From: a virus
Lineage: Duplodnaviria > Heunggongvirae > Uroviricota > Caudoviricetes
Strand: one strand, 5' to 3'
IMG/VR virus record: IMGVR_UViG_3300019867_000001
Location: 29,244-93,243 of that record
Length of the DNA stretch: 64,000 nt
The notes beneath the pieces are model-generated. The model was not told the DNA's origin. It did no database searches and worked only from the letters and a program-made list of their open reading frames with translations. Each line of letters opens with the position of its first letter. Position 1 is the first letter of the stretch. Of the stretch, positions 13,673-39,984 are shown piece by piece. The translations under genes and the position numbers were made by a program.

Positions 13673-16600
13673 TCAATATACATTACTGTATAAGGCTTCA
13701 TTTAAAAAGTATCTTCTGCCTACTCTACTCTTCATTCGTCGTTTTTGTACACCATAAGTTTCTAATTTATAAATACCCTTGTCATCTGCAACATCCAGAA
13801 GTTTTACGCCTAGTTCAAACCATTCTTTTCGGCTACCTCTATAATTAGCCATATTATAAAGATCACGACCTAAACTAACAGCGAATTGATCTCTATCAGG
13901 CATATCAGCTAATGAAAGCCTATGGGCAAACTTTAAGTAAAATTCTGATAAATCACGGTCTGTTAGACTTAAAAAGTTTTTCTTTAGAGGCAATTTTGGA
14001 TCAATAAAAACCCTACCTAAAACTCCTCTTAACTCTCTTGCAATTTTAGGCGCAGTAGTATTTTCCCAAGTATTTCGCTTTTGTATATTCTCAAGAAAGT
14101 TATCATGTAAATCTTGTAATTGGACTGGTCCTAAAACTGGATCAATGTAATTTTCTTGCTTCAGCTTGAAAAGTAAATTAGCATCTTTGCGTATTTGTGT
14201 TTCAATGTAATCAGACACATTCATTACATCAAATTTCATTTGTCCATTTAGAACAGCTTTTAAATTAGCCCAAGGTATTTTGTTTTCACGTGCTCGTTGA
14301 AATATAATCCTTAAATTATCCGTTATAACAGCACGTTGATTAGTACCCATATGACCATCAAGGTCATCTACAAACTTAAGTATAAAGTCTTTATCTTTAG
14401 GTAGTAATACCTCTGATTCTTCTACTAGTCTTTTAGTATTCTCTAATACCTGCATATTTGGTTGGTAAATCCTTGCATCATCATACCTACCAGTAAAGGG
14501 ATTATACTTCAAATTATCTTCAGTAGGCGGTGAACTTAATACTCTAATTTTAGTATTACGTTTATTATGTAATAATGTACCCCTATAATTAGTAAGCGAA
14601 AGCATTCCATCCAACTCACCATCCTGTAGCAAATAATACTCTTTAAGTGCTTTTTGAAATTCTTTAGATTCTAAAATTTCATCAGGACGTGCTGCACCAA
14701 GTTTAAGAGTATCAAGTTTTTCTTTAGCTAATGCAAATCTACGTGTATCTCCTGGTAAAGCATAACCTGGATCTGTAAGTTTACGGAGTTCCTTAATACC
14801 TATTGAATTGCCTTCATCATTAGTAAATTTATCAAGAGTTAATTGTCCACTTCTGAATACTTCAAGTTTTTTGATATCTCCTAAATGCCTTAACTGAACT
14901 TCTGATGCTTGCCGCGTCAGCCATTCATTATAGGATTCCTTTAATGGAGACTGCCCATCATAAAATGCAATTTGCTTATCAGTTAATCCTTCGAGATTCC
15001 GTTTACGTATTTGGGCTATCCCTTCAAGTTCACCTAGTTGCTCATAGCTTTTTACAATCGGTATAGTAGAGGATCTACAATTACTACCCCAAATTATCTT
15101 ACCATTTCTTTTAGTAAGCAATGTATGCTTATCAGCTAATTCTATATCATAAACTTTGTATAGGCCATCACATTCAACTATAATAGTAGCATCCGTTAAC
15201 CTTCTATATTGACTTCTATTCCAAGCAATATGATAAACTAAATAATTACCATCAATTGTATCTCCATTTTTCTTTATAACAAAACTTGGAAGTCGTTCAT
15301 AAACACTTGCTGAATCCCCAACTTTAATTATAAGTTCACATAAATCTGCCATTAATTGTTTTGAAGTAGTAAAAAATTTTCTTACTAGATTTGAAGTATA
15401 TCCTTCAAAATCAGATTGTTTAACAGAAGTACCATCTCCTAACAAGTATGCTTCAAGAAAAACTAATAAATCACTTTTAGGTAAATTTTTAATTTCTTTT
15501 GGTATATACTTTTCAGTACATTTTCCAAATTTTAATAACCAATTATTTAAATTTTGATCAACAAAACCTAATCCAGTTTGACGATTAGATGGGTTTAATT
15601 CTTTTAATTCTTCTAACATTAATTGTTTATGTGTATACTGCGAAATACAACAATCAATGTAACCTTTATTTTTAATTGATACAGATCCATCCGATAACCA
15701 CCAAGCCATAAATTTACAAAATATAGAAACAGATGGAAATTCAAAATTATTTACAATTATTTTATCTATACTTTTGCCTATCCACTTAGATGATGCAAAC
15801 ATTCTAAAATCAACTTTAGGCGGTATATCTAAAATTGAATTATAATATTTTGGTAAATATTCTTTATAATTGCCTCTATCAACCCTCTTTTGTCCTATGA
15901 AAGGATGATCTGCAGTTACTGCGATGTCGACTGAAAATGCTTTTATAAAAATTATCTCTTCAACTTCTTTTTCAAATTTAGTTATAATTGGTTGCCAAGT
16001 TAAGTCTTCAGTTTCAGGATCTAAAGATAAACATTTTTCATTTATAATTGTATCTTTAATTAATTTAAATCCATTTTCAGTCAATACTTCTGTATCTTCC
16101 AGGTAACAGAAAAAGTGACTGGGCGGGAGATGACTTGTATCACTTATTGGGTACACAGTGCCATCTCGATGAGCACAAAGTGGCGTTGTTCTGCTATCCA
16201 ATACAGCAACATATTGCCATCCTTGTAATGCTTTTTCATTAACTTTATAAACTTCGTGATCTGTTTGAGCGTATACACTTGTAATAGCAGTAGTAACTAA
16301 GCCTTGAGATTGGTTCTTTGTTATTTTAAATATACTACCTTTACGTACATTTAAGGCTATTTCTTCTTCTGTAAGTCCTTCTGCTAATCCTTTACGTATT
16401 AACGATTCAATCCTAATCTTCTCACCTTTAGCAATACTATTCCAGCCTTGAGCTAGAGTTTGATTGCTATAAATTGGACGTGATAAAACTATATCCTCAG
16501 CTATCCTTCGAGTAGGCTTAGAAGTATGCCAAATTTTGCCTAAAGACGCATCTAAACTTTGATATGTATACGAAATTTGATCTCCAACTAAATCAAGCAA

Positions 16601-16870
16601 TGATCGTTTAGTAGTTGTATGTAAAGCATGAGTTGTTCTTGCTAATTCTGCATCTACAGCTTCTCTAAATTTAATAAAACCAGGTCCATTCATTTTAGCT
16701 TTACGTACCAAGTCTTCGATTTTAACTGCATGCCCATCTACTATTAATGATACTTTGCCTTGAACTCTTCGCTCATAAAGTCTTATCATTGCTGATCGAT
16801 CTATTGATTTATCATAAATTTCAGTATTTACATTTATAGCAGTCATACTAATCCTTAATAAAGTAATCAA
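13673..16870 (-). CDS. head morphogenesis protein (Mu F / SPP1 gp7 family) with intein and long C-terminal extension
   Basis: Exteins reconstitute the Mu-F signature ...YVAVLDSRTTPLCAHRDGTVYP...LPPSHFF|CRSS (H.NCRC-like). 1065 aa, including a 343-aa intein and about 470 aa after the MuF domain. Confidence 0.6.
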   Translation of the reverse strand: MITLLRISMTAINVNTEIYDKSIDRSAMIRLYERRVQGKVSLIVDGHAVKIEDLVRKAKMNGPGFIKFREAVDAELARTTHALHTTTKRSLLDLVGDQISYTYQSLDASLGKIWHTSKPTRRIAEDIVLSRPIYSNQTLAQGWNSIAKGEKIRIESLIRKGLAEGLTEEEIALNVRKGSIFKITKNQSQGLVTTAITSVYAQTDHEVYKVNEKALQGWQYVAVLDSRTTPLCAHRDGTVYPISDTSHLPPSHFFCYLEDTEVLTENGFKLIKDTIINEKCLSLDPETEDLTWQPIITKFEKEVEEIIFIKAFSVDIAVTADHPFIGQKRVDRGNYKEYLPKYYNSILDIPPKVDFRMFASSKWIGKSIDKIIVNNFEFPSVSIFCKFMAWWLSDGSVSIKNKGYIDCCISQYTHKQLMLEELKELNPSNRQTGLGFVDQNLNNWLLKFGKCTEKYIPKEIKNLPKSDLLVFLEAYLLGDGTSVKQSDFEGYTSNLVRKFFTTSKQLMADLCELIIKVGDSASVYERLPSFVIKKNGDTIDGNYLVYHIAWNRSQYRRLTDATIIVECDGLYKVYDIELADKHTLLTKRNGKIIWGSNCRSSTIPIVKSYEQLGELEGIAQIRKRNLEGLTDKQIAFYDGQSPLKESYNEWLTRQASEVQLRHLGDIKKLEVFRSGQLTLDKFTNDEGNSIGIKELRKLTDPGYALPGDTRRFALAKEKLDTLKLGAARPDEILESKEFQKALKEYYLLQDGELDGMLSLTNYRGTLLHNKRNTKIRVLSSPPTEDNLKYNPFTGRYDDARIYQPNMQVLENTKRLVEESEVLLPKDKDFILKFVDDLDGHMGTNQRAVITDNLRIIFQRARENKIPWANLKAVLNGQMKFDVMNVSDYIETQIRKDANLLFKLKQENYIDPVLGPVQLQDLHDNFLENIQKRNTWENTTAPKIARELRGVLGRVFIDPKLPLKKNFLSLTDRDLSEFYLKFAHRLSLADMPDRDQFAVSLGRDLYNMANYRGSRKEWFELGVKLLDVADDKGIYKLETYGVQKRRMKSRVGRRYFLNEALYSNVY
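15080..16108 (-). mobile_element. intein with LAGLIDADG homing endonuclease in the MuF protein (residues 255-597)
   Basis: N-terminal block CYLEDTEVLTENG. Two LAGLIDADG motifs (FMAWWLSDGS, LEAYLLGDGTS). C-terminal ...IIWGSN followed by extein Cys. Flanks rejoin to HFF-CRSS. Confidence 0.6.
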
Positions 16871-19730: not shown

Positions 19731-22331
19731 TTATAATTGACCAACATATTGATCTAATACGATTACATCCAAAAATGTCCCACTTGGTAAATATAAACGT
19801 TCAAGACGCGTTGTAATAGGCAAAGAAGTAAGTGTAATAGTTTGTATATTATTTATTGTATACGGCGCTTGATTAAATACCCAATTAGTATTATTTCCAC
19901 CATTTGTTGCACCGTAAATAACGCTACCTGCATAAAAAGTATTAGCAGGACTTGCTATGCTATATGAAACATTAGCATGATTGCCAAAATTCAGCTTACC
20001 AGTTCCAGATTTAACTAAAGTATGTGTGGCATTAGTAATCGAACTGATCTTAATTTCTAGACTAAACAGAGCATATCCGTTCCGCGTCCACACTTCGCCG
20101 GTCGTTGAGGATGTGAAGGTGTTGCCGGATACCCAGTCGTTAGGATTGAAATCTACAGCGAGCGTACCGTTTATGCCGTTGTAAATTTGGGCACGATATA
20201 CATCACCAGCACACGGCTGAGTTTGCCCAATGCTAATCTGCGCAACGCTGTCAAAGAAACCAGAACCAACGGATACTGTGACTGTTGCTCCTAATTGAAC
20301 CCAAGTAACGCCATCTTCTGTCGGGCAAGTATAAAATTTCGTGTCACCAGATGATACCTGCCTTGTAACTCGCACCCAATGTAGAGAACCGGCTATAAAC
20401 CCATGCACTACGGTAGAAATCGCACCTACCCCAGAAACTGCGGTGCCAGTCGGATAAATAATAAAGTTTAATTGTCCACTATTCACTCTAAATAAGTAAG
20501 TACGATGACTACCATTATTATCATCTTTGCCAATTAAACATTGTGTGATCGTTGGAGAAGCCCAATTATTAAGCGCAACCTGTACTCTAATATCAATGTC
20601 GCCAAGAATTGCAGAGGTCACACTGTTTGGGGTAGACAGCTGGTTATAGACAAGTACTGGGTCAGTTCGTACAAACTTCACTGCCGCCGGATTGTAAAGA
20701 GGTACGTTCACACTCGCCACGGTCATAGTCGTGCTCGCCGTTAAGCGGATATTTTTGGGGCCGTTGTCGGTTCGGAACTCGTTAAAAGTGTTGCTGCCGG
20801 TGAAGTCGAAGGAGCCTGAGCCTGCGCCTGAGAGCCAGATATTGTTGTAGGTCTTGCCGCCGCCTGCGAAGGTCTTGATGGCTGATGTGGCATCGGTTAG
20901 CTTAGTCGTTCCGCTGTCAGTCACTGTTACACCCGCTGCGGTACTGAGCACTGTTCCACTGCCTGTGATCGCCCTTAGTCCAGTGCGGATAATCGTGCTT
21001 GCATTGGACGAGGTGAAGCTCGCCATCGTGGTATTGAATCCGGCATCGTTCTTAGTGCCATTGGTGACTGTGAATGCGCCATTCGTAATAAAAGCGTCAG
21101 CGAGAGTAAGCGTTCCTCCCGGCATATTCTCTATGACTGGCTGCGTGAATGTGTGGCCTGCACTTGTTAGCGTGACTGAACTGCGGGCACCAAACGTGAG
21201 TGCAGCAGTACCTGAGAGTACACCCGCATTCGTCAAATTCAATGAGCCGTAGAGTGTATTGGCAACAGTTGTATTCAGGATTGGCGAATTGCCTGCCCCA
21301 GTGAAGTTGATGTTTTTTCCTAGTCTCGGCATATCCATCGTGACCGTTCTGCCAGCGATGAAGGCGTTCGGAACATCTACATCATCCTGTGGCAGCGGTA
21401 CGCGAGAAGTCCAGCCATGCGTGCTCCAAGCGAATGATGCGGTTCCTGTAGCAGTCTGCTTGACTGAAGCAGCGAATGTGATATTAGAGTTTCCGCCACA
21501 ATCTCCTAAGTTGCCTGATGTAGCGACCCACGTCCCGCCTGCACCGGCAGCGGTGATGTCCATAAAGTCACAGTTGGTGAGGATTGGGGGATTAGTGCAA
21601 GTGATGGTACGTGGCGTGCCTACTGATAAGACATACGCCGTGGCTGCTTGTACCAATACGGGCATAGTAGGGCTGGAGCCAGAAATTGTTAGAAAATGCG
21701 TGACAGCAATATCATTGTTAAACGCATTTATACAATTTGCAACATTAGTACCAGGAAACACAAGGTCATAGAAGCTGAACGCGCCACCGATGATCGTGCC
21801 GGCGGGGCGATCCAAAGTCATCTTCTTTCCGTTCGGATCAAAACTGGCCGTAGCGATAAGGCTAAAAACGGAGGGATTCAACGTCCAGTCACCCATTAAC
21901 TTGTATGTGGCAGCCCCGTTTAAGTTGACGGTACTACCAAAAGTAAAATCCAATACCTCGTTAGGTGTAATCGTTTGAATGCCAGAAGGTGCAAGGAATT
22001 GCAAAGTTCCGTTGTATTTGCCTGAAGCACCTACATCCATCCCTGCTAACAACTTCAATGAGCCATAACAGTTAATTGATCCACTACCCACCAGCGTAAT
22101 CGTCCCACCTGCGCCATCCCCCGGCTTGGCGTCGAACATCAGGTCACGGCAATTGAACGTCACATCTACGGTAACTGTGTAGCCGGCGTTACTGGTATTG
22201 CTCAGACCATCAAAGTGTGCATCAAGAACAGACGTAGGCAAGTTGCCAGCGCCTGGCGCACCGCCTGACGTAGCCGCCCAATGATTCGCGGCGTCACTGG
22301 TATTGCCCGTACCGTTGACCCAGAAGCTCAT
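19731..22331 (-). CDS. large Gly/Thr/Ser/Asn-rich protein, putative tail fibre/receptor-binding protein (GC-rich island)
   Basis: 866 aa, beta-rich and low in charged residues, with a C-terminal lectin/LamG-like region. Local GC is clearly higher than the flanks. Confidence 0.4.
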   Translation of the reverse strand: MSFWVNGTGNTSDAANHWAATSGGAPGAGNLPTSVLDAHFDGLSNTSNAGYTVTVDVTFNCRDLMFDAKPGDGAGGTITLVGSGSINCYGSLKLLAGMDVGASGKYNGTLQFLAPSGIQTITPNEVLDFTFGSTVNLNGAATYKLMGDWTLNPSVFSLIATASFDPNGKKMTLDRPAGTIIGGAFSFYDLVFPGTNVANCINAFNNDIAVTHFLTISGSSPTMPVLVQAATAYVLSVGTPRTITCTNPPILTNCDFMDITAAGAGGTWVATSGNLGDCGGNSNITFAASVKQTATGTASFAWSTHGWTSRVPLPQDDVDVPNAFIAGRTVTMDMPRLGKNINFTGAGNSPILNTTVANTLYGSLNLTNAGVLSGTAALTFGARSSVTLTSAGHTFTQPVIENMPGGTLTLADAFITNGAFTVTNGTKNDAGFNTTMASFTSSNASTIIRTGLRAITGSGTVLSTAAGVTVTDSGTTKLTDATSAIKTFAGGGKTYNNIWLSGAGSGSFDFTGSNTFNEFRTDNGPKNIRLTASTTMTVASVNVPLYNPAAVKFVRTDPVLVYNQLSTPNSVTSAILGDIDIRVQVALNNWASPTITQCLIGKDDNNGSHRTYLFRVNSGQLNFIIYPTGTAVSGVGAISTVVHGFIAGSLHWVRVTRQVSSGDTKFYTCPTEDGVTWVQLGATVTVSVGSGFFDSVAQISIGQTQPCAGDVYRAQIYNGINGTLAVDFNPNDWVSGNTFTSSTTGEVWTRNGYALFSLEIKISSITNATHTLVKSGTGKLNFGNHANVSYSIASPANTFYAGSVIYGATNGGNNTNWVFNQAPYTINNIQTITLTSLPITTRLERLYLPSGTFLDVIVLDQYVGQL

Positions 22332-23800: not shown

Positions 23801-24355
23801 TCAGAATCCAAATCCTCTTACAGCTGGAATACTACTAGATCTAATTGAAAAAAGATACTCTATGGAATAGCGAACACCATCTGAGAAATGTTCTACACCT
23901 TCCTTTTTATCTATAGTTGCTGAATCAGGGTTGTTATCAAGCCAAGAAGTACGTTCTATAGACATAATAGTTCCAGTACAACGTGGATGAAAAAACAAGT
24001 TAATCTCGCCTGCTGCTGTCTTAAGCATACGATTTACAGCATTCACTGAATCCACAATAGGTGGCGATTTATTATGTGAAAATACTCTAAAACCATAAGA
24101 TCCAAGTATATTAAAATCTGTTCTACCCATTACAGCTGAAGTTTTTCTGCTCTTCCCTGTAGGATCGGGATATAATGAGATCTTACAAGGCTTTACTCGA
24201 GTCTTTTCATACTTAGGCCAGTAACGTCCTATAATAGCACGAGCTAACATATCAGTATCAGGGAATCCTTGTAATTCATCTAAATACTGAACTTGTCCAC
24301 CTCTAACTGCAAATACTGAAGAGCATTGGAGACCTACGTTAAACCAGTTGTTCAT
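23801..24355 (-). CDS. terminase large subunit, exon 2 (nuclease domain)
   Basis: 184 aa with RNase-H-like terminase nuclease features (…HFSDGVRY…). Downstream of the ATPase exon. Confidence 0.5.
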   Translation of the reverse strand: MNNWFNVGLQCSSVFAVRGGQVQYLDELQGFPDTDMLARAIIGRYWPKYEKTRVKPCKISLYPDPTGKSRKTSAVMGRTDFNILGSYGFRVFSHNKSPPIVDSVNAVNRMLKTAAGEINLFFHPRCTGTIMSIERTSWLDNNPDSATIDKKEGVEHFSDGVRYSIEYLFSIRSSSIPAVRGFGF

Positions 24356-25082
24356 TAAAGCTCGTTAAACTTTAACCGAGTCTTGAAGATACCCAATTGC
24401 ACTTTTAAGACTATTTATATTGTCTTTAAAAGCACCTAAACCAGTATTACAAAAACCACAAAGAACACCACGAATTTCGCCTGTAAGATGATCATGATCA
24501 ATTACAGCTTCTTCACTAATATTCTTTCCATGGCCTTGTTTAAGTTTAAAATTTGTTATATTGCCACAAATCGCACATAGATTATTTTGCTTTTGAAGAA
24601 AAGAATCACGTTCTTCTAAAGATAAACTATGTTTACGTTTGTAATACCATTTTGATTGTCGTTCTTTACCACATTCTTTACAATAAGTTTGTAATTTATC
24701 TGCTCTATACGCATTATTACTAAACTCAGTAAATGTTTTTTCTTTACGACAAACATAACAAATTTTAAAACCTTCTCTTTGATTGAAATTTAATTTATTT
24801 CTTGTTAATGGAATATTTCCATTTTCAGTCAAATGTACTGGTAATTTAAACACTATATCTCCTAACTCTGCTATACATTACTGTATAGAGCAGACTATAT
24901 TATCAAAAGTCTTTAGTGGAGTAGCTTTTAAATTAAAGCCACATCCCAACCTTTGTTCGGCGCTTCCACTGGACTTCCAGTGTACTCCTTTACAGGATAG
25001 TCGTTGCACCTTCAAACTTTAAATTAAGCATACTTTGTATGCTAAACTCTTAGTAAGCTTGGCTCAGGATTGACCACGAGGG
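24356..25082 (-). mobile_element. group I intron-like element (family A) with EndoVII-type HEG, in terminase large subunit gene
   Basis: Family core 24880-25082 plus ORF 24365..24853. The family sequence overlaps the last codons of the exon-1 ORF, so the true 5' splice site is slightly upstream of 25083. Confidence 0.45.
24365..24853 (-). CDS. endonuclease VII-family homing endonuclease (intron-encoded)
   Basis: Cys/His zinc clusters typical of T4 endoVII-like nucleases (CAICG...DHDHLTGEIRGVLCGFCN). Confidence 0.5.
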   Translation of the reverse strand: MFKLPVHLTENGNIPLTRNKLNFNQREGFKICYVCRKEKTFTEFSNNAYRADKLQTYCKECGKERQSKWYYKRKHSLSLEERDSFLQKQNNLCAICGNITNFKLKQGHGKNISEEAVIDHDHLTGEIRGVLCGFCNTGLGAFKDNINSLKSAIGYLQDSVKV

Positions 25083-25958
25083 TTATCCCCTGAGTTCACC
25101 GAATTTTATATCGACCAATAAATCGATACCAATATGAATATCCTCAATGATATCCCCTTCATCATTCATTTTAAACCATTCTAAATCATTTCTAATATGT
25201 AGTTTTCGGTCAAAACAATAAAATACATTATTTCCTGATTCTTGGAATGATGCCAAATACTCCCTCGCGAATCGAATGGGGTCTATGTTATGACGAATAC
25301 GCTCTATTTCAACAGGATCTAAGAGTGGACTTGTTGTATAGTCAAGTTGGTAACTTTTCCAAGTGACGTCAGTATCCTGAAATGTAAACATTTCATAAAG
25401 ATAATCATAACCTTTAGGAGTACTAATAGTAAGTGACCTACCGCTTCGAGGACTTCCGTATTGCTTAGCCTGTTTTGGGCTCCAACGAGTTACTATGGTT
25501 GGCTGAATTATTGATTCCCAAGCTTCCTTTGCTCCTGGAGTTTTAGCCCAATCACGTATTTCATCATTAACGACATAATAAGCTCCACTTCCACGAAGTC
25601 TCTCTATTGCTTCAAAAGAAATTAACTTGAGTTCCACATTCTTAGGAAACCATAACCTGCCTGCATCACGAGAGTACTTCAAGCAATATCCTGATAAACC
25701 TAATTCATAGATAAGTAAAGGAAAGTATATTTCAGAAACCTGCGTATATGTTGGTGCAATAATTAATACATTTTTATTAGGCACAGACTCATCAAGTTGC
25801 ATGAGCTCAAATATAGCATTTGTTGCACAAGTGGCAGCTAAGAAAGATTTGCCCCAGCCTCTCGACGTCACTGCGACTATATTTTGTACTATATCCTTTA
25901 AGAATATTTCTGAGAATATCTCACTCTGCTTTGGGTGAAGTGTGATCGTTGAATTCAT
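25083..25958 (-). CDS. terminase large subunit, exon 1 (ATPase domain)
   Basis: Walker A VTSRGWGKS, Walker B-like VVNDE. Confidence 0.55.
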   Translation of the reverse strand: MNSTITLHPKQSEIFSEIFLKDIVQNIVAVTSRGWGKSFLAATCATNAIFELMQLDESVPNKNVLIIAPTYTQVSEIYFPLLIYELGLSGYCLKYSRDAGRLWFPKNVELKLISFEAIERLRGSGAYYVVNDEIRDWAKTPGAKEAWESIIQPTIVTRWSPKQAKQYGSPRSGRSLTISTPKGYDYLYEMFTFQDTDVTWKSYQLDYTTSPLLDPVEIERIRHNIDPIRFAREYLASFQESGNNVFYCFDRKLHIRNDLEWFKMNDEGDIIEDIHIGIDLLVDIKFGELRG

Positions 25959-26742
25959 CTAAAATTGACCTATTTCTATAATCTTTATTACCTTTAGCTT
26001 TTAAATAAGCTTGAGATGCTTCTTCGGATGTATTAAAAGTACCTAAATAAATAGATTTTTTATTTTCCATAATATCAGCTCTATATCTATTTCTAGCTTT
26101 ACGGACACCTATAGGTAATCCAGTAGTTAATTCTAAATATACTTTTTCACTAATTAAATTTTTTTCAAATGCGATATCTTGACATTTCTTAAAAACCAAG
26201 TTTTCATCAAATTCTCTTAGATTTTCAGCTATTTTTCGAAAACGCATGCTTATCTTATTAAAAACTGAATCTCTTAACAAAGAATCTGGTAACGAATTAA
26301 TATAAGTATTTAAATCAGACTTATCTCTATTCATATTGTATTCTTCAACCCAAGATTTCTTCTTTTTCTTTAAGTATAAATTTTCAATCGCCAAATTATG
26401 TGGGTTTTCATCTTTAAAACAAACTTTCATATTGTCAGGAATACTATCATTATGGTATATCCAAATCAAATAATGATATCTAAATGGTATATTATCAATT
26501 TGAATAACCCATCTATTCCAAGGTTGAATAAAACAACCTGGTTCTGATTTAGTAGTATAATATGGTTTTTCTTTATACTTAAATTTACCATTTTCATAAA
26601 TAAATCTTCGTTTTAATTCTTCTGAAGTTATAGGTCTATTAGGGGATATTTTTAGCATTTGATAGCCTAGCAGTATCAAAATCAACAGGAGTCCCTGTGA
26701 GATTAATTTGAATTGGCATTGTAGCCATAGTATTAATCTCAA
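25921..26742 (-). CDS. HNH-AP2-like homing endonuclease (free-standing, between putative terS and terL)
   Basis: Degenerate HNH region (YHNDSIPDNMKVCFKDENPHNLAIENLYL). Clear AP2-like C-terminus (GVRKARNRYRADIMENKKSIYLGTFNTSEEASQAY). Confidence 0.45.
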   Translation of the reverse strand: MRLILWLQCQFKLISQGLLLILILLGYQMLKISPNRPITSEELKRRFIYENGKFKYKEKPYYTTKSEPGCFIQPWNRWVIQIDNIPFRYHYLIWIYHNDSIPDNMKVCFKDENPHNLAIENLYLKKKKKSWVEEYNMNRDKSDLNTYINSLPDSLLRDSVFNKISMRFRKIAENLREFDENLVFKKCQDIAFEKNLISEKVYLELTTGLPIGVRKARNRYRADIMENKKSIYLGTFNTSEEASQAYLKAKGNKDYRNRSILDEFNDHTSPKAE

Positions 26743-27127
26743 CAGTTTCTATTGCTCGAGCATAGCCATAACGTAACAAGTCACTGATGATCCTTTGTTT
26801 AACTGACACAAGTGTAGTCATTGCTATTGTTGAAAACCGCTTAGGATCACCAGTTTCATCATACATCATATTAAAAATATCTTTTTCAAGCTGACGATAC
26901 ATTTCTATCATCTGCTCAATAGGATCAAATTGCAGCTCTTCTAACTTCTTCGCAGCTTTCTTTGAGTAAATCCTAGTCTCTCGAGGAGATTCGATTATAT
27001 CATCTGGAAGTTTATCTAAATGAAATAATTCAAGCGGCTCGCCCATCGTATCACCTGTATGCAATAAATTGGAAAAACGGACATTTACCATGTGGTGTTC
27101 GCTTTCCTTCGGAAAGCTTTTGGACAC
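26639..27127 (-). CDS. hypothetical protein; possible small terminase subunit by position
   Basis: 162-aa ORF at the head of the packaging module, directly flanking the repeat hub. Confidence 0.25.
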   Translation of the reverse strand: MSKSFPKESEHHMVNVRFSNLLHTGDTMGEPLELFHLDKLPDDIIESPRETRIYSKKAAKKLEELQFDPIEQMIEMYRQLEKDIFNMMYDETGDPKRFSTIAMTTLVSVKQRIISDLLRYGYARAIETVEINTMATMPIQINLTGTPVDFDTARLSNAKNIP

Positions 27128-27160
27128 AGAATTCTTAGTTTACACAGAAATACTGTTAAT

Positions 27161-27262
27161 ATTAATTTATTTACTATTTTTAACTTGCAAATAAAACAGT
27201 ATTAGTATTAACTGTATTTATTATTTTTAAATTGCAGATAAAAGTGTTAAAATATTAATTAT
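27161..27262. repeat. 102-bp direct repeat, copy 1
   Basis: Identical to 28070..28171 (attaatttatttactatttttaacttgcaaataaaacagtattagtattaactg...). Confidence 0.8.
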
Positions 27263-27344
27263 ATTTATTATTCTAAGTATAAACCACTATTATATAAAAT
27301 TTAATAGTATTATGTTTCGTTTTATTATAATATTATGTTTTATT

Positions 27345-27792
27345 TTGTTATAGTATTAGGTTTGTTATTATGTTTTATAGTATTAGGTTTGTTATTATGT
27401 TATAGTATTAGGTTTGTTATGTTTTATAGTATTAGGTTTGTTATTATGTTTTATAGTATTAGGTTTGTTATTATGTTATAGTATTAGGTTTGTTATGTTT
27501 TATAGTATTAGGTTTGTTATTATGTTATAGTATTAGGTTTGTTATTATGTTATAGTATTAGGTTTGTTATGTTTATAGTATTAAGTTTGTTATGTTTTAT
27601 AGTATTAGGTTTGTTATGTTTTATAGTATTAGGTTTATTATTATGTTATAGTATTAGGTTTGTTATGTTTTATAGTATTAGGTTTGTTATTATGTTATAG
27701 TATTAGGTTTGTTATGTTTATAGTATTAAGTTTGTTATGTTTTATAGTATTAGGTTTGTTATGTTTTATAGTATTAGGTTTATTATTATTAT
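27345..27792. repeat. tandem array A: about 19 copies of a 22-26-bp unit (atagtattaggtttgttat[tat]gtt[t]t)
   Basis: Read directly from the sequence. No unique spacers. Confidence 0.85.
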
Positions 27793-28069
27793 AATTTTAT
27801 ATAGGCATTAATAACATAAAAAATAGTATTAATGCCTATATTATAATTTTATTTAATTTTATAACATATAACTATTATATTTATTTTGGTTATTGTTTCT
27901 TATTATAATACTCTAGATAGACCAGTATATGTTAAGTTTACAGCTACATTTAAATAAATTTTACATTAAACTGGAATCTAAGTATTCAGATTTTATTTCG
28001 TTTTATAGAATAATGTTAAGGATTGTTTACTTAAATCATTATCTATAAGCAGATTTTAAAGCTATAAGT

Positions 28070-28171
28070 ATTAATTTATTTACTATTTTTAACTTGCAAA
28101 TAAAACAGTATTAGTATTAACTGTATTTATTATTTTTAAATTGCAGATAAAAGTGTTAAAATATTAATTAT
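28070..28171. repeat. 102-bp direct repeat, copy 2
   Basis: Identical to 27161..27262. Confidence 0.8.
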
Positions 28172-28208
28172 TTATTATAATTTAAAATATTATACAACTA
28201 TTTTACAT

Positions 28209-28550
28209 GATACTAAGTATTATAATACTACAATACTAAGTATTTAAAACTAACAACTAATATAATACTAAGTATTTAAAACTAACATGATACTAAGTAT
28301 TATAATACTACAATACTAAGTATTTAAAACTAACAACTAACATAATACTAAGTATTTAAAACTAACAACTAACATAATACTAAGTATTTAAAACTAACAA
28401 CTAATATAATACTAAGTATTTAAAACTAACAACTAACATAATACTAAGTATTTAAAACTAACAACTAACATAATACTAAGTATTTAAAACTAACAACTAA
28501 CATAATACTAAGTATTTAAAACTAACATAATACTACTAAGATTTAAAAAC
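28209..28550. repeat. tandem array B: about 10-12 copies of a roughly 31-bp unit (aactaacataatactaagtatttaaaactaac)
   Basis: Read directly from the sequence. Confidence 0.85.
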
Positions 28551-28792
28551 ATCATACAACTATTCATTTAATGTATAGATCGTCAATCTATCATTAAATT
28601 CTTAATTTGTCCATAATGGGTTAGCCCAATAGCTTTAGAGCCCATCCTGAAAGCTATTTACTACGGCTATTCTTTATTTTAATATCTTTTACTTTCAAAA
28701 ACTAAACCTTAAGGGAATCGTTCATATTAGGGTAAGTTTACAGCTGTTCTACCTAATCGCATAAACATTAAATCAATTTTTTCTATTAAATA

Positions 28793-28880
28793 AACAAAAA
28801 AAAAAAAAAAAAAAAAACAAAAAAAAAAACCTATAAGCCACTCTAACTCCCAATTGAGGGAATTAGAGTAGCTTATAGGT
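28793..28880 (-). terminator. strong intrinsic terminator for minus-strand transcription
   Basis: About 22-bp perfect hairpin (cctataagccactctaactccc/aattg/agggaattagagtagcttatagg). On the minus strand it is followed by a U-run of more than 30 nt. Confidence 0.5.
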
Positions 28881-28885
28881 TAAAT

Positions 28886-29236
28886 TTAATCTTCAGTTTG
28901 TATTAATTTTAAATTTTCAATTTGTTTTAATTGTATATATGTAACTTTCCTTGTTTTTAAAAGTTTAATTAGTCTTAATTCTAAATTTTCAATTCGATCA
29001 TCTAAATTCGATTCTTTATGAATTACCTTATAGCCTACAGGAATTTCTCCATTATGATATACCCAAACTAAATTTTTTCTTAAATGATATTTATTATTAT
29101 ATTTAATTCTAAAACCTGTTCTATAATGCTGAAAACCAGCTTTCTCACCAGCTTTTGATGATCCAGCACTAATTAACCAAATAAATTCACCAGTTATTAC
29201 ATATGACAAAATCAAATGCCAATTAATTAATTGCAT
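28886..29236 (-). CDS. HNH-like protein
   Basis: HNH-type motif LVWVYHNGEIPVGYKVIHKESNLDDRIENLEL. Confidence 0.35.
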   Translation of the reverse strand: MQLINWHLILSYVITGEFIWLISAGSSKAGEKAGFQHYRTGFRIKYNNKYHLRKNLVWVYHNGEIPVGYKVIHKESNLDDRIENLELRLIKLLKTRKVTYIQLKQIENLKLIQTED

Positions 29237-30880: not shown

Positions 30881-31522
30881 CTAATCTCCTGGTGGTGTCC
30901 ATACTGCCTCATTTTCCTTCAGATTCCTTCCTAAATTATTTGCAATTACACTACCAGTTGAACGCATCATACTAACAGTATCTGAAGTGGTAGCATACAT
31001 AGCTTTTATACCTTTTACTGTATTACTATAACCTGCTGTATTTGCCATGCTAATACCCATAGAGCCAGCTTCAGCAAAAGCATCTACATTAGCGCCTAAG
31101 TAAATAAATGCCCATTTACCTGAATCCTGTCGAGTTTTAATCATTGCTTGTATTTTAGCTTTTGTGTATTCATTCGAAGCGTTTTCTTCACCATCAGTTA
31201 CTATGACTACGATAGCACGTTCTGGTTGTTCACGCTTCCAATCTTCATCTAATTGATTAATTGTAGTGCCAATAGCATCTAATAGCGGTGTACCACCACG
31301 AGGCTGAAAATCATCAGGAGTTAGCAATTTGCATTCATTTAACGCCTGCATAGGCTTAAAACGCTCAATTGCACCTGTATCAAATCTCACAAATGCAATA
31401 CTAGCTGAATCAGGTAGTTTTTGTTGTTCAATAATGAATGTATTTACACCACCAATAACATCAGTTTCACGACCAGACATTGAACCGCTACGATCAAGTA
31501 TAAGACAAATCATTGATTTCAT
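30881..31522 (-). CDS. von Willebrand factor A (vWA) domain protein
   Basis: MIDAS DRSGSMSG ... T ... TDGEEN. Confidence 0.55.
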   Translation of the reverse strand: MKSMICLILDRSGSMSGRETDVIGGVNTFIIEQQKLPDSASIAFVRFDTGAIERFKPMQALNECKLLTPDDFQPRGGTPLLDAIGTTINQLDEDWKREQPERAIVVIVTDGEENASNEYTKAKIQAMIKTRQDSGKWAFIYLGANVDAFAEAGSMGISMANTAGYSNTVKGIKAMYATTSDTVSMMRSTGSVIANNLGRNLKENEAVWTPPGD

Positions 31523-31532
31523 ATTAATATCC

Positions 31533-32447
31533 TTATTTTACACTCATAAAAGGAATTGGCGCACTCCCATAAATACTAACAGGCAATACACCATTCCAAA
31601 CTTCTGCTTTCTTCATTTCGACTTCAATCCTGCGAAGTTCGAGTACATCCTTATTCTGTAATAAAGCAGCATTTTGGATCTTTAATGCTTCAGCTTGAGC
31701 TTTTGCTACTGTTAAATTGGCGTAAGCTTCACCATCCGCTTTTGCTTTTACTGCGGTAGCTTCTGCTTCAGCTGTGACTACCTTAATTTTTTGTTCAGAT
31801 ATAGTGGTTAATACTCTATTGTCTGCTGCAAGCTTCTTTTGCTCTTGAGTTGTTTTGTCATTAATTGCATCCATATAAGACTTTTGAAATGAGAAATTAG
31901 TCATATCTATATTAATTACTTGTGCACCATATAATGCTAACTTGGTCTTAAGAGCAGCATTTATATCACCTGATACTTGCGCTCTTTTAGCAATCAAATC
32001 CGGTGCAGTGTAATGTGCTGTGACAGCTTTAAATGTTTCCATGGTAGCAGTTTGTACATATGAGGCTAAATTACCATCATGAGAATACTTTTCAAATACT
32101 TCTGCTACTTTGTCAATCATAATGCTATACCTCACAGTCATACTCACATGTACAGGCTGAGTATCACTAGTACTACCTTCAGCGTCTTTAATGTCTGCAG
32201 TTTCAGCCCGAATACTGAAATTACTTAATTTCTGCCATGGTAGAAGTATTGTTAAACCTTCTGCTTCAATGCCTATTATTTTGCCAAATTGAGTTACAAC
32301 ACCACGACTACCAGTCGGAACTGAGTAGAACGGCCAGAGGAATATTATACTTAAAACAACACTTACAAAAATTCCACTAGTTTTTAACTTATTACTCATT
32401 AAAGAATTCTCCATGTGCTTCCTTTGCAATTTTGTTTTTAGACCCAC
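31533..32447 (-). CDS. SPFH/band-7 (prohibitin/HflKC-like) membrane protein
   Basis: N-terminal TM segment. SPFH-like core followed by a long Ala/Glu/Lys coiled coil. Confidence 0.55.
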   Translation of the reverse strand: MGLKTKLQRKHMENSLMSNKLKTSGIFVSVVLSIIFLWPFYSVPTGSRGVVTQFGKIIGIEAEGLTILLPWQKLSNFSIRAETADIKDAEGSTSDTQPVHVSMTVRYSIMIDKVAEVFEKYSHDGNLASYVQTATMETFKAVTAHYTAPDLIAKRAQVSGDINAALKTKLALYGAQVINIDMTNFSFQKSYMDAINDKTTQEQKKLAADNRVLTTISEQKIKVVTAEAEATAVKAKADGEAYANLTVAKAQAEALKIQNAALLQNKDVLELRRIEVEMKKAEVWNGVLPVSIYGSAPIPFMSVK

Positions 32448-33637: not shown

Positions 33638-35038
33638 TTATTGTATCACAGCATAACGAGGATTATTAATTACAGTCATCATTATACTGTAAGGTGAGAG
33701 ATTTTCCAATTCACCTGCAAGTATTGCCTTTAATACTGTAGGTGAATAACCAGAAACCATTACAATTCCTGACTGATTTGCAGTAGCAGGTACGTTCTTA
33801 TATTCCCCGTTTAAATTCCAGAATACAATAATAGGTATTTTATAACCTGCCTCTTTGTATTTATATGCAATTGCCTCTACAGCAGTATTATTGCCATATT
33901 GATCGAATTGCATATCTGAAAGTACAAGGAGTATCTTGGGCATTTCTTCTTGTTTAGCTTCACGTCTGATTGCAATGCTAAGTAGTAATTCAACTGCACC
34001 TACGAGATTTGTATTACCACCCCAAGGAAGTTCCTTTAGCATTTCATAACGTTGCTTAAGTGTTCCCTCCAACTTAAAGATCTCAGGATGAGCATCAAAA
34101 TTCAATACTTCTCCGTGGAATGCTCCAAGCTGTTTCTCAGCGATATATAAGCCAAGTGAAACAGATATATCAATTGCTCGTAAATTCTTGTTTCCAGTGA
34201 TTGGGACTGTCATTGAGCCTGAAGTGTCTACCATTGCAAGAATTCCAAAATCCGAATTAAGGTAGTTTGGAAGAGCAAGCCACTGAGCCTCTGCAGTTTC
34301 TTCTTGCCCTGCAGTTAATCCTTTGAGGACATCATGAGGAAAGATTGCAGTAGCATTGATCTTAACACCTTCTTTGCCAGCTTTAAGATCTGCTTGCCAA
34401 GCAGTATAGCGTGTTTCTTGATGTTTCTTGAAAGCATTTTGATAAATCTTGCTTGCAATGGACGGAACGTGATTGAAGTTAATATCATCCCACTGCTTTG
34501 CACACATTTGGGATTCAACAACTTTGGTCATGTTGACCAGAAGCTTACGGTAAGCTTTTGGAGTAAGTTTCAAATGCTGCCGAAGCTGTGTTGCTATTGG
34601 ACCTTTACGTGGCATCCATTTAGCACAAAGCCCATTATTTGCTTTTAAGCCTTGGTTAATGATACTAAATGCAATATTCTGCATTGTGGGATTATCATCA
34701 AAAATCAATAAATCATCCCAACGGCCAAATTCAGGAACATGTTGCAAATTACGAACTAAAGCTTCCAAATCTACTTTAGCAAGTGCTTTAAGGATATCCC
34801 TAAAAACTTTCCTCTCGCCAGCACCACCGCGGATATCCCTTGCCCAAAAGAGAATCCTAAGAGCTTCTATTTTGAATTGAACGAATGCTGTTAAGAACAA
34901 ACCTACAATTGCCAGATTGTTCCTGGCTGCACCTATGGCAAAGAACAAGTCTACTAAAGGGTTAGTAGTACTCTTGTAAGCAATCATTTTATTTTGTGTA
35001 GTCGTTAAGTTACCACTGGTCTCGCCCAGAAAGCTCAT
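33638..35038 (-). CDS. rsr: Ro60/Rsr-like protein (TROVE + vWA domains)
   Basis: Helical N-domain with FVQFK...GRWDDLL and IFPHDVL, similar to Ro60 FIQFK / GWSHKDLL / IHPFHIL as I recall them. C-terminal vWA with MIDAS MVDTSGSM. Confidence 0.5.
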   Translation of the reverse strand: MSFLGETSGNLTTTQNKMIAYKSTTNPLVDLFFAIGAARNNLAIVGLFLTAFVQFKIEALRILFWARDIRGGAGERKVFRDILKALAKVDLEALVRNLQHVPEFGRWDDLLIFDDNPTMQNIAFSIINQGLKANNGLCAKWMPRKGPIATQLRQHLKLTPKAYRKLLVNMTKVVESQMCAKQWDDINFNHVPSIASKIYQNAFKKHQETRYTAWQADLKAGKEGVKINATAIFPHDVLKGLTAGQEETAEAQWLALPNYLNSDFGILAMVDTSGSMTVPITGNKNLRAIDISVSLGLYIAEKQLGAFHGEVLNFDAHPEIFKLEGTLKQRYEMLKELPWGGNTNLVGAVELLLSIAIRREAKQEEMPKILLVLSDMQFDQYGNNTAVEAIAYKYKEAGYKIPIIVFWNLNGEYKNVPATANQSGIVMVSGYSPTVLKAILAGELENLSPYSIMMTVINNPRYAVIQ

Positions 35039-35515: not shown

Positions 35516-36067
35516 TTTAATTCCTTTATCAGATTAACACGCTTTAAGTCCGTCGACTTCGGTGAGCCGTAAGGCTCGATTTGTTGCGGAAGTTAATCTT
35601 ATCATATCAGGTTGGTTTTATAGGTTTAGCTATAGCGAGATGTCTTTTCATCAGTCAAGTGGAATACCACTATTACTACCGGCATATAAATTGGTAGTGC
35701 TGAACCCAACCTTAAACAGGATCATGCCTTTCGGCGTTCATTTAACGGATGAGATTTTAGGTGCTGCAATGATCCTTAATACTAACAGACTCGTCCATTT
35801 TGTGAGAATGGTAACTCATCTCTATATATGATGCTGAAACGAGTCTTAATTACTGGATTGCCCCTTCCGGGTTTCGCTATAGGAATTTTGGGATGCTGTA
35901 GCAATCCATTGATATCTCCTATTATGGTAGTTCTTTAATTAATACTTCCATAATAATCCCTCTGCAGCCTATTAACATTACCGCTTGTATTGCAGTTATT
36001 TCTTTTCAGGATATAGTGCTGCTATTATTTTATTTGCTAAAGTTAATGCATCAGATTTATTCATAGT

Positions 36068-37108
36068 TTATGGTGCAAGTAAACATTCTACATCATTCCT
36101 TTTTGGTCCGTATGAGCGATAATTAAATTTTAAAAAGTAATTATCTTCAACTTTTTTCTGATCTAAGCATGTAATTGCAATCTTATAAGACGATGTACTG
36201 TTATTATGATCTTTAATAATTCTTTGTTCTAATTCTTTTATGTTTAATGGAGCATACCGTAATTTACCTTGAAATTTATTTTCAAAATTAGTTTCATCTT
36301 TAACCCAATTTGGTAATGGCTGCTCATTAACTAGTGGACCAGCACCATGTCGCGTTAAATAAGACCGAGATACATATATAGGATTAAGTTCTTTGATATC
36401 CCATTCATTACAAAGTTCTAATACATTTTTAATTCCAGTATTAGATGGTGTTAAATATGGAAACCCAGGATAATTTTGATCTAACATTAAACCTTGTGCG
36501 CCCTCAAATACAAAATTAGTACCTTTAGGTTTTTCACTAATTATTATTTTATCAAGAAATTTTTCTACATAACTAAAGTATATCTCTCTCCACTTTGCTT
36601 CAAATTCTAAATTAAAAAGATTTAAGTTTAATAATCTTTTAGGTATATATTCTTTTAAAATTCTATCATATACACTCTTATCTCTAATTGTTTTTACTTT
36701 TATACAGTATTTAGGATCTCTAGACCTAAGGACTGTTTCAAAAATTCCAACTCCACAAGTATCTAATTTCGCAATTGCTTGATTTATTAACATGTCAAGT
36801 GGTGTCGTTACAGTAGATGATGGATGTACATGTGTTGGTGATAATTGTAATTCGTTAAAGAATAAAATAGGATTGCAAATAAAGTGTTCACTTAAATAGG
36901 TCGGGATATTTAAGAAGCCACCAGAAGCATGATGGTGAAATACATTTCGTTCACCTTTAGGAGTTACAACAGAATGACCTGCCTGACTGCCACCATTAAA
37001 GCGAATTACAAAATCAGGGGAATGTTTTGAGCAAATATAATCTGTTATATGACCTTTTGATTCATCACCATAATTAGAACCTATGACAGCATATGCTTGC
37101 GCTTGCAT
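36068..37108 (-). CDS. adenylosuccinate synthetase (PurA)-family protein, short form; candidate PurZ
   Basis: GDESKGH / NGGSQAGHS / FEGAQGLMLD / TRHGAGP match the PurA signature blocks (GDEGKGK / QGGHNAGHT / FEGAQGTLLD / TRVGAGP). 346 aa, against about 430 for cellular PurA. Confidence 0.6.
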   Translation of the reverse strand: MQAQAYAVIGSNYGDESKGHITDYICSKHSPDFVIRFNGGSQAGHSVVTPKGERNVFHHHASGGFLNIPTYLSEHFICNPILFFNELQLSPTHVHPSSTVTTPLDMLINQAIAKLDTCGVGIFETVLRSRDPKYCIKVKTIRDKSVYDRILKEYIPKRLLNLNLFNLEFEAKWREIYFSYVEKFLDKIIISEKPKGTNFVFEGAQGLMLDQNYPGFPYLTPSNTGIKNVLELCNEWDIKELNPIYVSRSYLTRHGAGPLVNEQPLPNWVKDETNFENKFQGKLRYAPLNIKELEQRIIKDHNNSTSSYKIAITCLDQKKVEDNYFLKFNYRSYGPKRNDVECLLAP

Positions 37109-38739: not shown

Positions 38740-39322
38740 TTATCCTTTATTAAAAAATTCACCATGTAATGCTTTAGCTCTTTCATTATAAGCTTCTCCT
38801 GCTTCTTCAGGAGTATTAAAATAGCCGATATGAATAGATTTATTGTTTATTCTAATTGTTGCTACCCATTTTTTATCTCGTTTATGCCAAGAAACTCCTT
38901 TATAACCAGATGCATTATCTTTTCTAAGTACAGTATTAAAATTTTGTTCTTGTCTTGTGGCTAATCTTAAATTTTCTATTTAAACTATCTCTATCAATGT
39001 GATCTACTTCCATTCCTTCAGGTATAGCTCCATTAAACATTTCCCAAATAATTCTAGCTGCTATAAACGCTATTTTATTATATCTAACTTGCCAAGACTT
39101 ATAGCACTGTTTTGTTATTATTAAATAACCAGCCAAATCACCAATATTAACTCGTGCTGAAGGCTTTATTTTCCAAAATAAATTACCTTTATCGTATTCA
39201 AAAATTTCATAAATTGATATCTTCTTTTTGTTAGTTAATTGCTGCTTGTTTAAGGCACAAGCAGCAAAGCCTATTAAGCGACACCAGCACTTATTGCTAG
39301 TTATATCTAGAATGACTAACAA
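38740..39322 (-). pseudogene. HNH-AP2 homing endonuclease, frameshifted
   Basis: ORF 38936..39322 has the HNH part (MEVDHIDRDSLN). The AP2 part (GYKGVSWHKRDKKWVATIRINNKSIHIGYFNTPEEAGEAYNERAKALHGEF) lies in another frame. There is a small deletion relative to the paralogue at 47991-48020. Confidence 0.45.
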
Positions 39323-39984
39323 GATTTAGCTGGATTGCTTAATCTGTAATCTTTTATGATCTTCTCTGCTTGCATATATAATACCGAATCACCTTCAGTT
39401 AAAACTTTAAGTAACAACTCGAATTCATTCATAAAAACTCTAGCAAATCCAGGATCATACTTAATAACGCTATCCGCATTATTAATTAAATCAGCAAGTT
39501 TAACAGTTTTCGCATCTGCAGGAGCTTGCCTTAAGTATTCTCTTTGAAGCTTTTTACGTTGTGCTCTATTACCCTTAAATGCTTGATCAGTTAACCAAAC
39601 TACAAGATTTGTAATTTCAATACCAAATATTGCTATTAATCCTTCTTTTGTAGTCTGTGTATCCTCGAGTGTATCATGAAGAATAGCTGCGCAAACCATT
39701 TCAACTGTATGTGGTACAGTTTTAACCAATTTAGCAACAGCAATACAATGATTAATGTATGGTTCTTTTGTATATTTTCGAATTTGGTCTTCATGCGCTT
39801 TAATTGCAAAATCTAAAGCTGTTGCTTCTAGATCCTCAATAATCTCCACAGTCCATCCTTTAAATTTGCAGTAGTCTAAAATCTTTCTTAATTTCCAACC
39901 TTTCATGTATTTTATTATTGGTGCTACAGCTCCGCCTTGTATTATACCAGCTATAAAATGTGGGGCAATAATACGCAGCATCAT
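39316..39984 (-). CDS. RelA/SpoT-type HD-domain hydrolase (small alarmone hydrolase-like)
   Basis: ALDFAIKAHEDQIRKYTKEPYINHCIAVAKL...CAAILHDTLEDT matches the RSH hydrolase signature (H...HD...ED). Confidence 0.55.
   Translation of the reverse strand: MMLRIIAPHFIAGIIQGGAVAPIIKYMKGWKLRKILDYCKFKGWTVEIIEDLEATALDFAIKAHEDQIRKYTKEPYINHCIAVAKLVKTVPHTVEMVCAAILHDTLEDTQTTKEGLIAIFGIEITNLVVWLTDQAFKGNRAQRKKLQREYLRQAPADAKTVKLADLINNADSVIKYDPGFARVFMNEFELLLKVLTEGDSVLYMQAEKIIKDYRLSNPAKSC

Follow-up and report, generated by a model that had tools for sequence, protein, structure and literature searches.

The primary replication origin of bacteriophage T7 consists of 2 T7 promoters and an AT-rich stretch, and secondary origins of T7 are linked to phiOL and phiOR. 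The lambda ori combines 4 palindromic iterons with an AT-rich region and a palindrome, the ori/crr system of P4 includes two 120-bp direct repeats carrying a short motif, and the "a" sequence of herpes simplex virus (HSV) is arranged as DR1-Ub-DR2 array-DR4 array-Uc-DR1. Here, we describe a repeat-rich, non-coding region of approximately 1.75 kb, referred to below as the hub, in a 64,000-nucleotide stretch of DNA from a tailed virus of the class Caudoviricetes (positions 29,244 to 93,243 of IMG/VR record IMGVR_UViG_3300019867_000001; hereafter, the window). The hub contains 2 different tandem arrays (A and B), a pair of identical direct repeats (DR1 and DR2) and a hairpin with a long oligo(T) tract, all of which are far beyond chance, and the feature is real and non-random. 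It may be a packaging signal, a replication origin or a gene switch; our leading reading, a tentative one, is that the hub is a DNA-level, multi-site protein-binding platform of a pac-like kind at the head of the packaging module.

The T7 concatemer junction (phiOR - SRR array - terminal repeat - SRL array - phiOL) resembles the hub in several respects: the genes are co-directional, a T7-type RNA polymerase (RNAP) and a gp4-like primase-helicase are encoded, and a non-coding region with 2 different short-repeat arrays and phage promoters lies between the last and the first genes. However, terS and terL precede the junction in T7 but follow the hub in the window phage, where the units, of 24-32 bp, have a palindromic core and are more numerous, and where a putative hairpin/oligo(T) terminator opens the region. 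The 2 loci have no sequence homology, and a terminal repeat of the window phage, if present, may be hidden in collapsed assemblies. Lambda-type cosB and lactococcal cos resemble the hub in having repeated protein-binding sites in the non-coding DNA just before the small-terminase gene, where the end of the gene map meets its start. Yet lambda has 3 R sites and an IHF site, compared with 30 tandem units in the window hub, and its late transcription reads through cos, whereas a predicted strong terminator precedes the hub. The HSV "a" sequence offers an analogy only, its layout being that of a cleavage/packaging region in which identical direct repeats enclose 2 different arrays, with a T-rich element and a copy number that varies between isolates; it belongs to a eukaryotic virus, is GC-rich and has a function tied to proven genome termini, and the arrays themselves are dispensable there.

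Organization of the hub

The hub is the biggest gap free of open reading frames (ORFs) within the window. The window genes are all encoded by the minus strand, and the GC skew stays below zero over the whole window; the hub is therefore read from right to left. Upstream, in the sense of transcription, is a replication and nucleotide-metabolism block (primase-helicase and ribonucleotide reductase, each with an intein, ligase, FEN, RNase H, DUF932 and others), and downstream is a packaging block (terS-like gene, split terL, portal and MuF). On the minus strand, the order is HNH gene, hairpin, T tract, unique segment 1 (237 nt), array B, DR2, unique segment 2 (216 nt), inverted repeat, array A, DR1, a 68-nt leader and a 150-aa ORF. 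The succession of the 13-nt motif AGCTGTAAACTTA, array and DR occurs twice, giving the hub the look of a duplicated module. A preliminary description of this stretch had proposed a layout of DRs, arrays A and B, poly(A) tract and hairpin between the replication/early and packaging modules. Every element was recovered at or near the place assigned to it, and the gene content on both sides agrees with that setting; the strand logic, the 47-nt unit within each DR, the palindromes at the array B sites and the apparent module duplication go beyond that description.

Array B (28205-28556; Tandem Repeats Finder [TRF] score 425) comprises 11 sites, 9 of which contain the exact 13-nt palindrome AATACTAAGTATT (AATACT-A-AGTATT). 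Its period is 32 bp, with a spacing of 23/25 nt towards the left (28205) end, where an 80-nt higher-order repeat is also located, in line with the earlier count of about 11 copies with a higher-order duplication. Array A (27300-27793) was detected with a period of 24 and 20.3 copies (TRF scores 652-757) and includes 18 regular units of 23-27 nt (27351-27792), with the core TAGTATTAGGTTTGTTAT and degenerate flanks, close to the approximately 19 copies of 22-26 bp reported initially. This array, too, has higher-order structure, namely, 76- and 145-bp duplications, with a 120-nt block exactly repeated 145 nt away. The cores of the arrays are highly homogeneous, and the core motifs of both A and B are confined to the hub within the 64-kb window. 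Both arrays and the DRs share the half-site TAATACTA, which is present just 15 times in the remaining 62 kb. Searches for the array A unit in IMG/VR and for the array B unit in GTDB genomes returned no match.

DR1 (27160-27263) lies just upstream of the leader of the terS-like gene and is identical over 104 nt to DR2 (28069-28172), which contains TAATACTAATACT; the 102-bp identical repeats described earlier are thus real and marginally longer. The pair can be extended to 124 nt at 93% identity, and each DR corresponds to about 2.5 copies of a 47-nt unit (TRF 27156-27272 and 28063-28186). The inverted repeat I12 (27788-27852; 26-nt arms, 81% complementary) marks the promoter-proximal edge of array A, with a predicted RNA folding energy of -18.9 kcal/mol (z -4.4 and -3.6 for the minus and plus strands, respectively). 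A CRISPR array was considered and rejected, the units being head-to-tail without unique spacers. A tRNA search of the window was negative.

The palindromic sites, the lack of an RNA family match or significant fold and the lineage-specific boxes found in relatives (see below) suggest that a dimeric or oligomeric phage protein recognizes the repeats as double-stranded DNA. The arrays would then work as double-stranded DNA rather than RNA, with the palindromes of array B serving as sites for a dimeric DNA-binding protein spaced about 3 helical turns apart. We consider it very unlikely that the repeats form instead a partition centromere (sopC/parS-like) of a plasmid-like prophage state or give rise to a functional repeat RNA acting as a sponge or decoy. 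Array B does have the form of F plasmid sopC, tandem units each with a short palindrome, which in sopC are bound by a dimeric protein, and SSU5-type phage-plasmids are among the distant terL relatives. However, no ParA/ParB, Rep or integrase, and no other partition genes, were found among the window ORFs scanned, and the genes present are those of a lytic phage. As for an RNA, the repeat block lies downstream of a promoter in relatives and so is probably transcribed, but an Rfam search of 26900-29000 returned zero matches at E <= 1 and DR1 has no significant fold on either strand (z -0.5). Moreover, the palindrome loops appear too short for hairpins, and palindromic sites point to recognition of double-stranded DNA.

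Architecture of the hub in related loci

The hub was compared with 80 metagenomic loci encoding terL relatives (51-64% identity); for the nearest terS relative (55% identical), 10 loci were fetched. The relatives have a common architecture consisting of a hairpin and T tract, a promoter-like motif, an AT-rich repeat block and a terS-like gene, and many of them display a GC-rich hairpin followed by 12-28 T at 190-1800 nt upstream of terS. Tandem repeats in the family peak between -2000 and -500 from the terL start, where they account for 1.5-3.6% of bases, compared with <=0.9% in any other bin. Most are 12-13-nt units repeated 3-6 times, sometimes 22-72-nt units, with sequences unrelated between lineages, and one locus (L066) has a 1.2-kb hub with several arrays. 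The 12-13-nt arrays, for instance the CCCTAAG-type boxes in L072, are reminiscent of T7 SRL, which we checked to be a CCTAAAG array with a period of approximately 12-13 nt beside the 160-bp terminal repeat. The architecture of the hub is conserved across the family, with lineage-specific sequence and size. Absence of the arrays from close relatives, or unrelated arrays there, had been named in the preliminary description as refuting its interpretation. The arrays are indeed absent from the closest relative and their sequences are unrelated elsewhere, but more distant relatives do have repeats at the same position.

An almost invariant motif, ACCCGTTAAATTAACCC, also found as (G)AACCCGTTAAATTAAC(CC), follows the T tract and precedes the AT-rich repeats in the relatives. 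The motif is genome-wide rather than hub-specific: the exact 17-mer has at least 120 matches in IMG/VR, with several copies per 70-79-kb contig on a single strand, and the motif-bearing loci (L022-L221) span 37% to 62% GC. The main coding strand holds 146 of 157 instances, and 150 of 157 fall outside ORFs of at least 100 aa, with the next ORF starting a median of 124 nt downstream, sometimes right after a ribosome-binding site. A search with the 40-nt promoter consensus found no cultured phage, and the 38 matches to the motif in GTDB, a number that by our estimate does not exceed the chance expectation for a 17-mer in 596 Gb, give no host information. The motif has AATTAACCC in common with the T3 promoter, possibly by chance.

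Because the nearest terS relative (L002) encodes a fusion of MuF with RNAP and the window phage has a weak PF00940 match, we infer that the motif is the promoter of a phage RNAP. The L002 protein (8225-12844; 1539 aa) matches both Phage_Mu_F (E 4e-16) and PF00940 RNA_pol (E 4e-14). In the window, the weak match to T7-type RNAP resides in an exon-like ORF (11218-11640), and the MuF gene looks like a heavily invaded version of a putative MuF-RNAP fusion. Five group I introns predicted by Rfam (66.9-97.8 bits) occupy 8599-13716 on the minus strand, alternating with HNH/NUMOD ORFs and with exon-like ORFs in which the MuF gene (13673-16870) continues. The domain composition suggests that the fusion may be a head-packaged, ejected single-subunit RNAP, unlike the N4 type.

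What sets the hub promoters apart is their surroundings. When 49 hub instances were compared with 106 others, the maximal downstream AT excess was +0.188 versus +0.091 (Mann-Whitney p = 5e-14), a T tract of at least 11 was present upstream in 27 of 49 versus 0 of 106, and 8-mers repeated at least 4 times occurred in 7 of 49 versus 0 of 106. The boxes are often palindromic and lineage-specific, with CCTAGG, GACGTC, GATATC, TGATCA and TCATTAAATGA types. Since the window arrays occupy the place of this AT-rich block, we interpret them as an extreme local amplification of the AT-rich box block of the family.

The canonical family promoter itself was missing from the window hub in a position weight matrix (PWM) scan. 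The sole strong match in the window is intergenic, at 41777 (41761-41777, minus strand), with a weaker one at 35749 (35736-35749, minus strand). Unique segment 1 (28557-28787, minus strand), which also has small inverted repeats, has a negative PWM score and a degenerate match to the family promoter at approximately 28700-28753: gapped alignment to the extended consensus GAAC..GT(T)AAA..ACCC..ACG(A)TTCCCT scored 22, tied 6th-10th of approximately 25,600 windows. The 13-nt motif AGCTGTAAACTTA lies at 28733-28745 in this segment, and unique segment 2 (27853-28068, minus strand) holds the second copy (27933-27945). The exact sequence CTGTAAACTTA is found within the window at these 2 hub positions only, and AGCTGTAAACTTA is not over-represented window-wide (4 matches versus 4.0 expected). 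These resemblances are suggestive of homology between segment 1 and the family promoter, in which case both unique segments may contain diverged promoter remnants. A sigma-70 promoter scan of the hub gave no excess over shuffles (36 versus 31.8 +/- 5.8), and a k-mer search for a promoter common to the hub and other intergenic gaps of the window yielded A/T-rich noise only.

The association of promoter and AT-rich DNA raises the alternative of a T7- and/or lambda-type replication origin, at which transcription by the phage RNAP would prime replication or open the AT-rich region, the boxes being iterons for an initiator or helicase loader, expanded in the window phage. We regard this as possible but rather doubtful, and rank it close behind the pac-like reading. 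The hub is the sole place in these genomes where the conserved promoter precedes a markedly AT-rich block, and that block stays with the promoter when ORFs are inserted before terS. Promoter pairs flank the block in some relatives, in tandem (L026) or convergently (L073 and L089), and the phage combines a T7-like replisome set (Toprim-DnaB fusion, ligase, FEN and RNase H) with a T7-type RNAP. In the window hub, repeats of one site stand beside A/T-rich DNA (approximately 80% A+T, with a poly(A/T) tract), as in the iteron origins of lambda, P4 (ori/crr) and plasmids, which share with it tandem dyad sites about 24-32 bp apart and a palindrome; the pair of roughly 100-bp DRs further resembles P4 crr. 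However, no initiator (Rep/O/DnaA-like) was detected among approximately 40 window ORFs scanned, the hub adjoins packaging rather than replication genes, and cumulative GC skew makes no turn at the hub beyond the composition of the arrays themselves. Furthermore, the window hub offers no canonical promoter beyond the gapped alignment in segment 1, and its 18-20 plus 11 repeats far exceed known phage origins, being 3-5 times more numerous than those of iteron origins.

The hub and the adjacent putative small terminase gene

The ORF immediately downstream of the hub (26639-27091, minus strand; 150 aa, starting with the ATG at 27091) is followed in the window by an HNH-AP2 gene and then terL; in 75 loci, a homologue of it immediately precedes terL. 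It is preceded by the leader (27092-27159, minus strand), which contains a 7-bp hairpin, GCTTTCC-GAA-GGAAAGC, at 27101-27117 (z -2.6); by eye, the relatives have a loosely similar TTTCGAAA-type leader element. The hub thus abuts the terS-like gene, with the N-terminal part of terL (terL-N) 1.2 kb downstream, where a pac or cos site would be located. The product has no Pfam, PHROG or PDB match, either singly or as a profile, and a pattern scan of IMG/VR retrieved no relative. Its AlphaFold2 model contains a helical hairpin, and with this model Foldseek found nothing significant, G20c TerS ranking third at E 2.6. In an alignment of 30 sequences, most TerS-like homologues have a (R/G)GRPxG motif in the N-terminal part and end in an acidic tail. 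The RGRP motif, in our own reading, is AT-hook-like and fits the binding of AT-rich DNA.

The terL gene of the window (23801-25958) is itself interrupted by an endonuclease VII ORF (24365-24853), which leaves separate ORFs for its N- and C-terminal parts, and Rfam detected no intron at this split. A group I intron with an endonuclease has been reported in the middle of terL in the roseophage DSS3_VP1 (PMC8323127).

The location of the hub beside terS/terL and the AT-hook-like RGRP N-terminus of many TerS-like homologues are consistent with a role in packaging. Under the pac-like reading, an AT-rich repeat/palindrome block would have been amplified by replication slippage or unequal recombination into array B, array A, with its 18 units sharing the half-site TAATACTA, and the 47-nt/104-nt repeats. 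A phage-encoded, sequence-specific protein, for which the adjacent TerS-like protein is the leading candidate, would oligomerize on the arrays, and the bound platform would tag the start of the packaging module for recognition, in the manner of pac or cosB. The copy number of the arrays would be free to drift.

Several observations weigh against this reading. The nearest relative has 3 tRNA genes in the equivalent gap in place of the arrays, and the large arrays are therefore dispensable. Array A, with its irregular 23-27-bp spacing and recent higher-order duplications, looks like the outcome of drift rather than a tuned structure, and the sharing of TAATACTA among the repeats could partly reflect common descent by duplication. 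When ORFs intervene, the AT-rich block keeps to the promoter rather than to terS (L031, L049, L025 and L072). Finally, the 150-aa ORF is identified as a putative small terminase by position only, and its product is devoid of the RGRP motif. Contig ends provide no help either (see below).

A predicted terminator at the entrance of the hub

On the transcribed strand, the hub opens with a hairpin (28828-28881, minus strand) with a 24-bp stem and a 6-nt loop, located 5 nt after the stop codon of an HNH gene (28886-29236, minus strand) and followed by an oligo(T) tract (28788-28827, minus strand) that reads T11-G-T22 and continues T-rich, for 34-42 nt. On the plus strand, the tract appears as 22 A (28796-28817) and 11 A (28819-28829) inside a 42-nt A-rich run. 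The hairpin is highly stable (RNAfold, -40.4 kcal/mol, z -11.9), with none of 200 shuffled sequences equally stable, and was recovered by a terminator scan (9 sites versus 0.8 expected), in agreement with its initial description as a terminator. That description had depicted a perfect 22-bp hairpin closing the hub. Instead, 2 positions of the 24-bp stem pair only as G.U in the minus-strand RNA, where the plus-strand RNA would have C.A mismatches, and, the flanking genes being on the minus strand, the hairpin and T tract open the hub. Because the 2 G.U pairs form only in the minus-strand RNA, they indicate that the hairpin acts, and has been selected, as RNA on that strand. The anatomy of an intrinsic (Rho-independent or T7 class I-type) terminator is complete, including a stable stem-loop, a U tract, the transcribed strand and a position after a stop codon, and this terminator is the strongest in the region. 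We therefore predict an unusually strong intrinsic terminator, the anatomy being plain and the activity inferred, which would end transcription of the replication/auxiliary block and insulate the hub from upstream read-through.

Such insulation would also suit arrays of operators, on which a phage repressor or activator would act by roadblock or looping to time expression of the late packaging/structural operon. This is unlikely, in our estimate, even though the strongest terminator of the region stands upstream and the first gene of the packaging/structural block downstream, the boxes of relatives sit between the promoter-like motif and the first downstream gene, and palindromic boxes are typical of operators. 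Thirty-odd sites are far above known operator numbers, no candidate regulator is conserved beside the hub, where the ORFs after the T tract and before the promoter vary among relatives, and the identity of the promoter in the window hub is uncertain.

Variation of the arrays and contig ends

In the 3 assemblies covering the hub, the unique parts are 100% identical, whereas array B is approximately 240 nt shorter in L017 and array A is 49 nt (2 units) shorter in L018; these differences come from short-read assemblies and may reflect collapse. Array copy number thus differs between assemblies of the same phage. The expansion or contraction that the DRs could mediate according to the preliminary description is not seen in these assemblies: the differences lie inside the arrays, and no DR1-DR2 deletion was found among the three.

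Variable copy number is one of the arguments for regarding the hub as neutral satellite DNA, that is, a permissive non-coding slot in which AT-rich repeats were expanded by slippage, unequal crossing-over or break repair linked to homing endonucleases, leaving functionless copies. Also in favour of it are the recent higher-order duplications (120 nt exact in array A and 80 nt in array B), the lack of arrays in the closest relative, the presence of HNH genes on both sides of the hub and the variable cargo of the slot, which in relatives includes tRNA genes, HNH genes and small ORFs. The small ORFs lie between the T tract and the promoter (L031, L032, L062, L136, L060, L079 and L088), so that the hub is an insertion hotspot; by eye, some encode AP2-like, ParB-N-like (DGRHR) and HExxH-containing proteins. 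We nevertheless consider neutrality of the whole improbable. The array cores are too homogeneous to fit it well, and repeated, often palindromic boxes specific to the hub recur, with unrelated sequences, in many independent lineages; because of this recurrent enrichment, at least the basal boxes appear to be selected.

Contig ends at the hub were considered as possible physical termini and rejected as such, a further point against the pac-like reading. The Logan contig L001 breaks inside DR1, and contigs of the window phage end variously in the stem, loop or T run: L013 and L014 end in the T tract, and L017 starts there. Near-complete relatives are cut at, or <=60 nt from, the T tract (L031, L049, L136 and L216/L129), and ends also cluster at the hairpin/oligo(T) in L036, L059, L065 and L071, these contigs including some of 68-104 kb. 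However, the end points vary and other near-complete contigs run through the hub. Assemblers may open circular graphs at a poly(A/T) k-mer or break at a hairpin with a homopolymer, and the ends at the T tract are, for these reasons, poor evidence for termini.

The phage and its genome

The window belongs to an uncultured virus of approximately 104 kb without a cultured relative, near-identical copies of which were recovered from 4 samples. A 103,960-bp MEGAHIT contig both starts and ends inside the T tract, indicating that the genome closes at approximately 104 kb. The terL-N product is at most 51-54% identical to those of Naomviridae roseophages and approximately 27-31% identical to those of the remaining listed phages (e.g., Nickie- and SSU5-type). 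Megablast of the hub region against 50,697 phage records gave a sole match, a 51-nt stretch within an HNH gene, and literature searches returned no description of this phage family or of its termini. The family is a large group of uncultured 70-105-kb phages with co-directional genes and a predicted MuF-fused T7-type RNAP.

The ORFs neighbouring the hub encode HNH endonucleases, phrog_8203, vWA, band-7 and the TerS-like protein. Just upstream, proteins of the band-7/SPFH (31533-32447), vWA (30881-31522) and DUF2828/DUF7788 vWA-like (33638-35038) types form a cluster. The genome is unusually rich in selfish elements: intein/Hint and LAGLIDADG domains are inserted in the primase-helicase (53817-55874) and the B12-type ribonucleotide reductase (51104-53293), and there are at least 8 more free-standing HNH or GIY-YIG endonuclease genes. 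Among the structural genes, the product of 6941-7711 strongly matches the CBASS inhibitor Acb3 (PF25187, E 3e-64). An 866-aa ORF (19731-22331) in a GC island (0.48-0.50 versus approximately 0.32 for the genome) probably encodes a fibre or receptor-binding protein of horizontal origin. A short (346 aa) adenylosuccinate-synthetase homologue (36068-37108) and an HD hydrolase (39316-39984) are also encoded. A PurZ/DatZ pathway for the Z base (2-aminoadenine) is unsupported, the best PDB matches being ordinary PurA and Mesh1/small alarmone hydrolases.

Implications for the phage family

A broader and more speculative proposal, quite unlikely to hold in full, is that these phages deliver their own MuF-fused T7-type RNAP and have the hub as their "launch pad". 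The universal terminator, the family promoter and the palindromic boxes would couple RNAP-primed replication, concatemer processing and packaging recognition, in a way similar to the concatemer junction of T7. In the window lineage, the promoter would have decayed and been replaced by the amplified array, amounting to a switch from initiation driven by a promoter to initiation driven by a protein array.

At a practical level, the hairpin with its homopolymer and the arrays would explain why short-read assemblies break or collapse at this locus, and array length may be usable as a strain marker. The window phage is the most amplified example of the family architecture, and its 11 palindromic sites and 18 half-site units would make a handy substrate for finding the binding protein. 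If the proposed role of the hub is true, the shared architecture would provide a testable map of cis-elements for a large family of uncultured phages with hundreds of metagenomic relatives.

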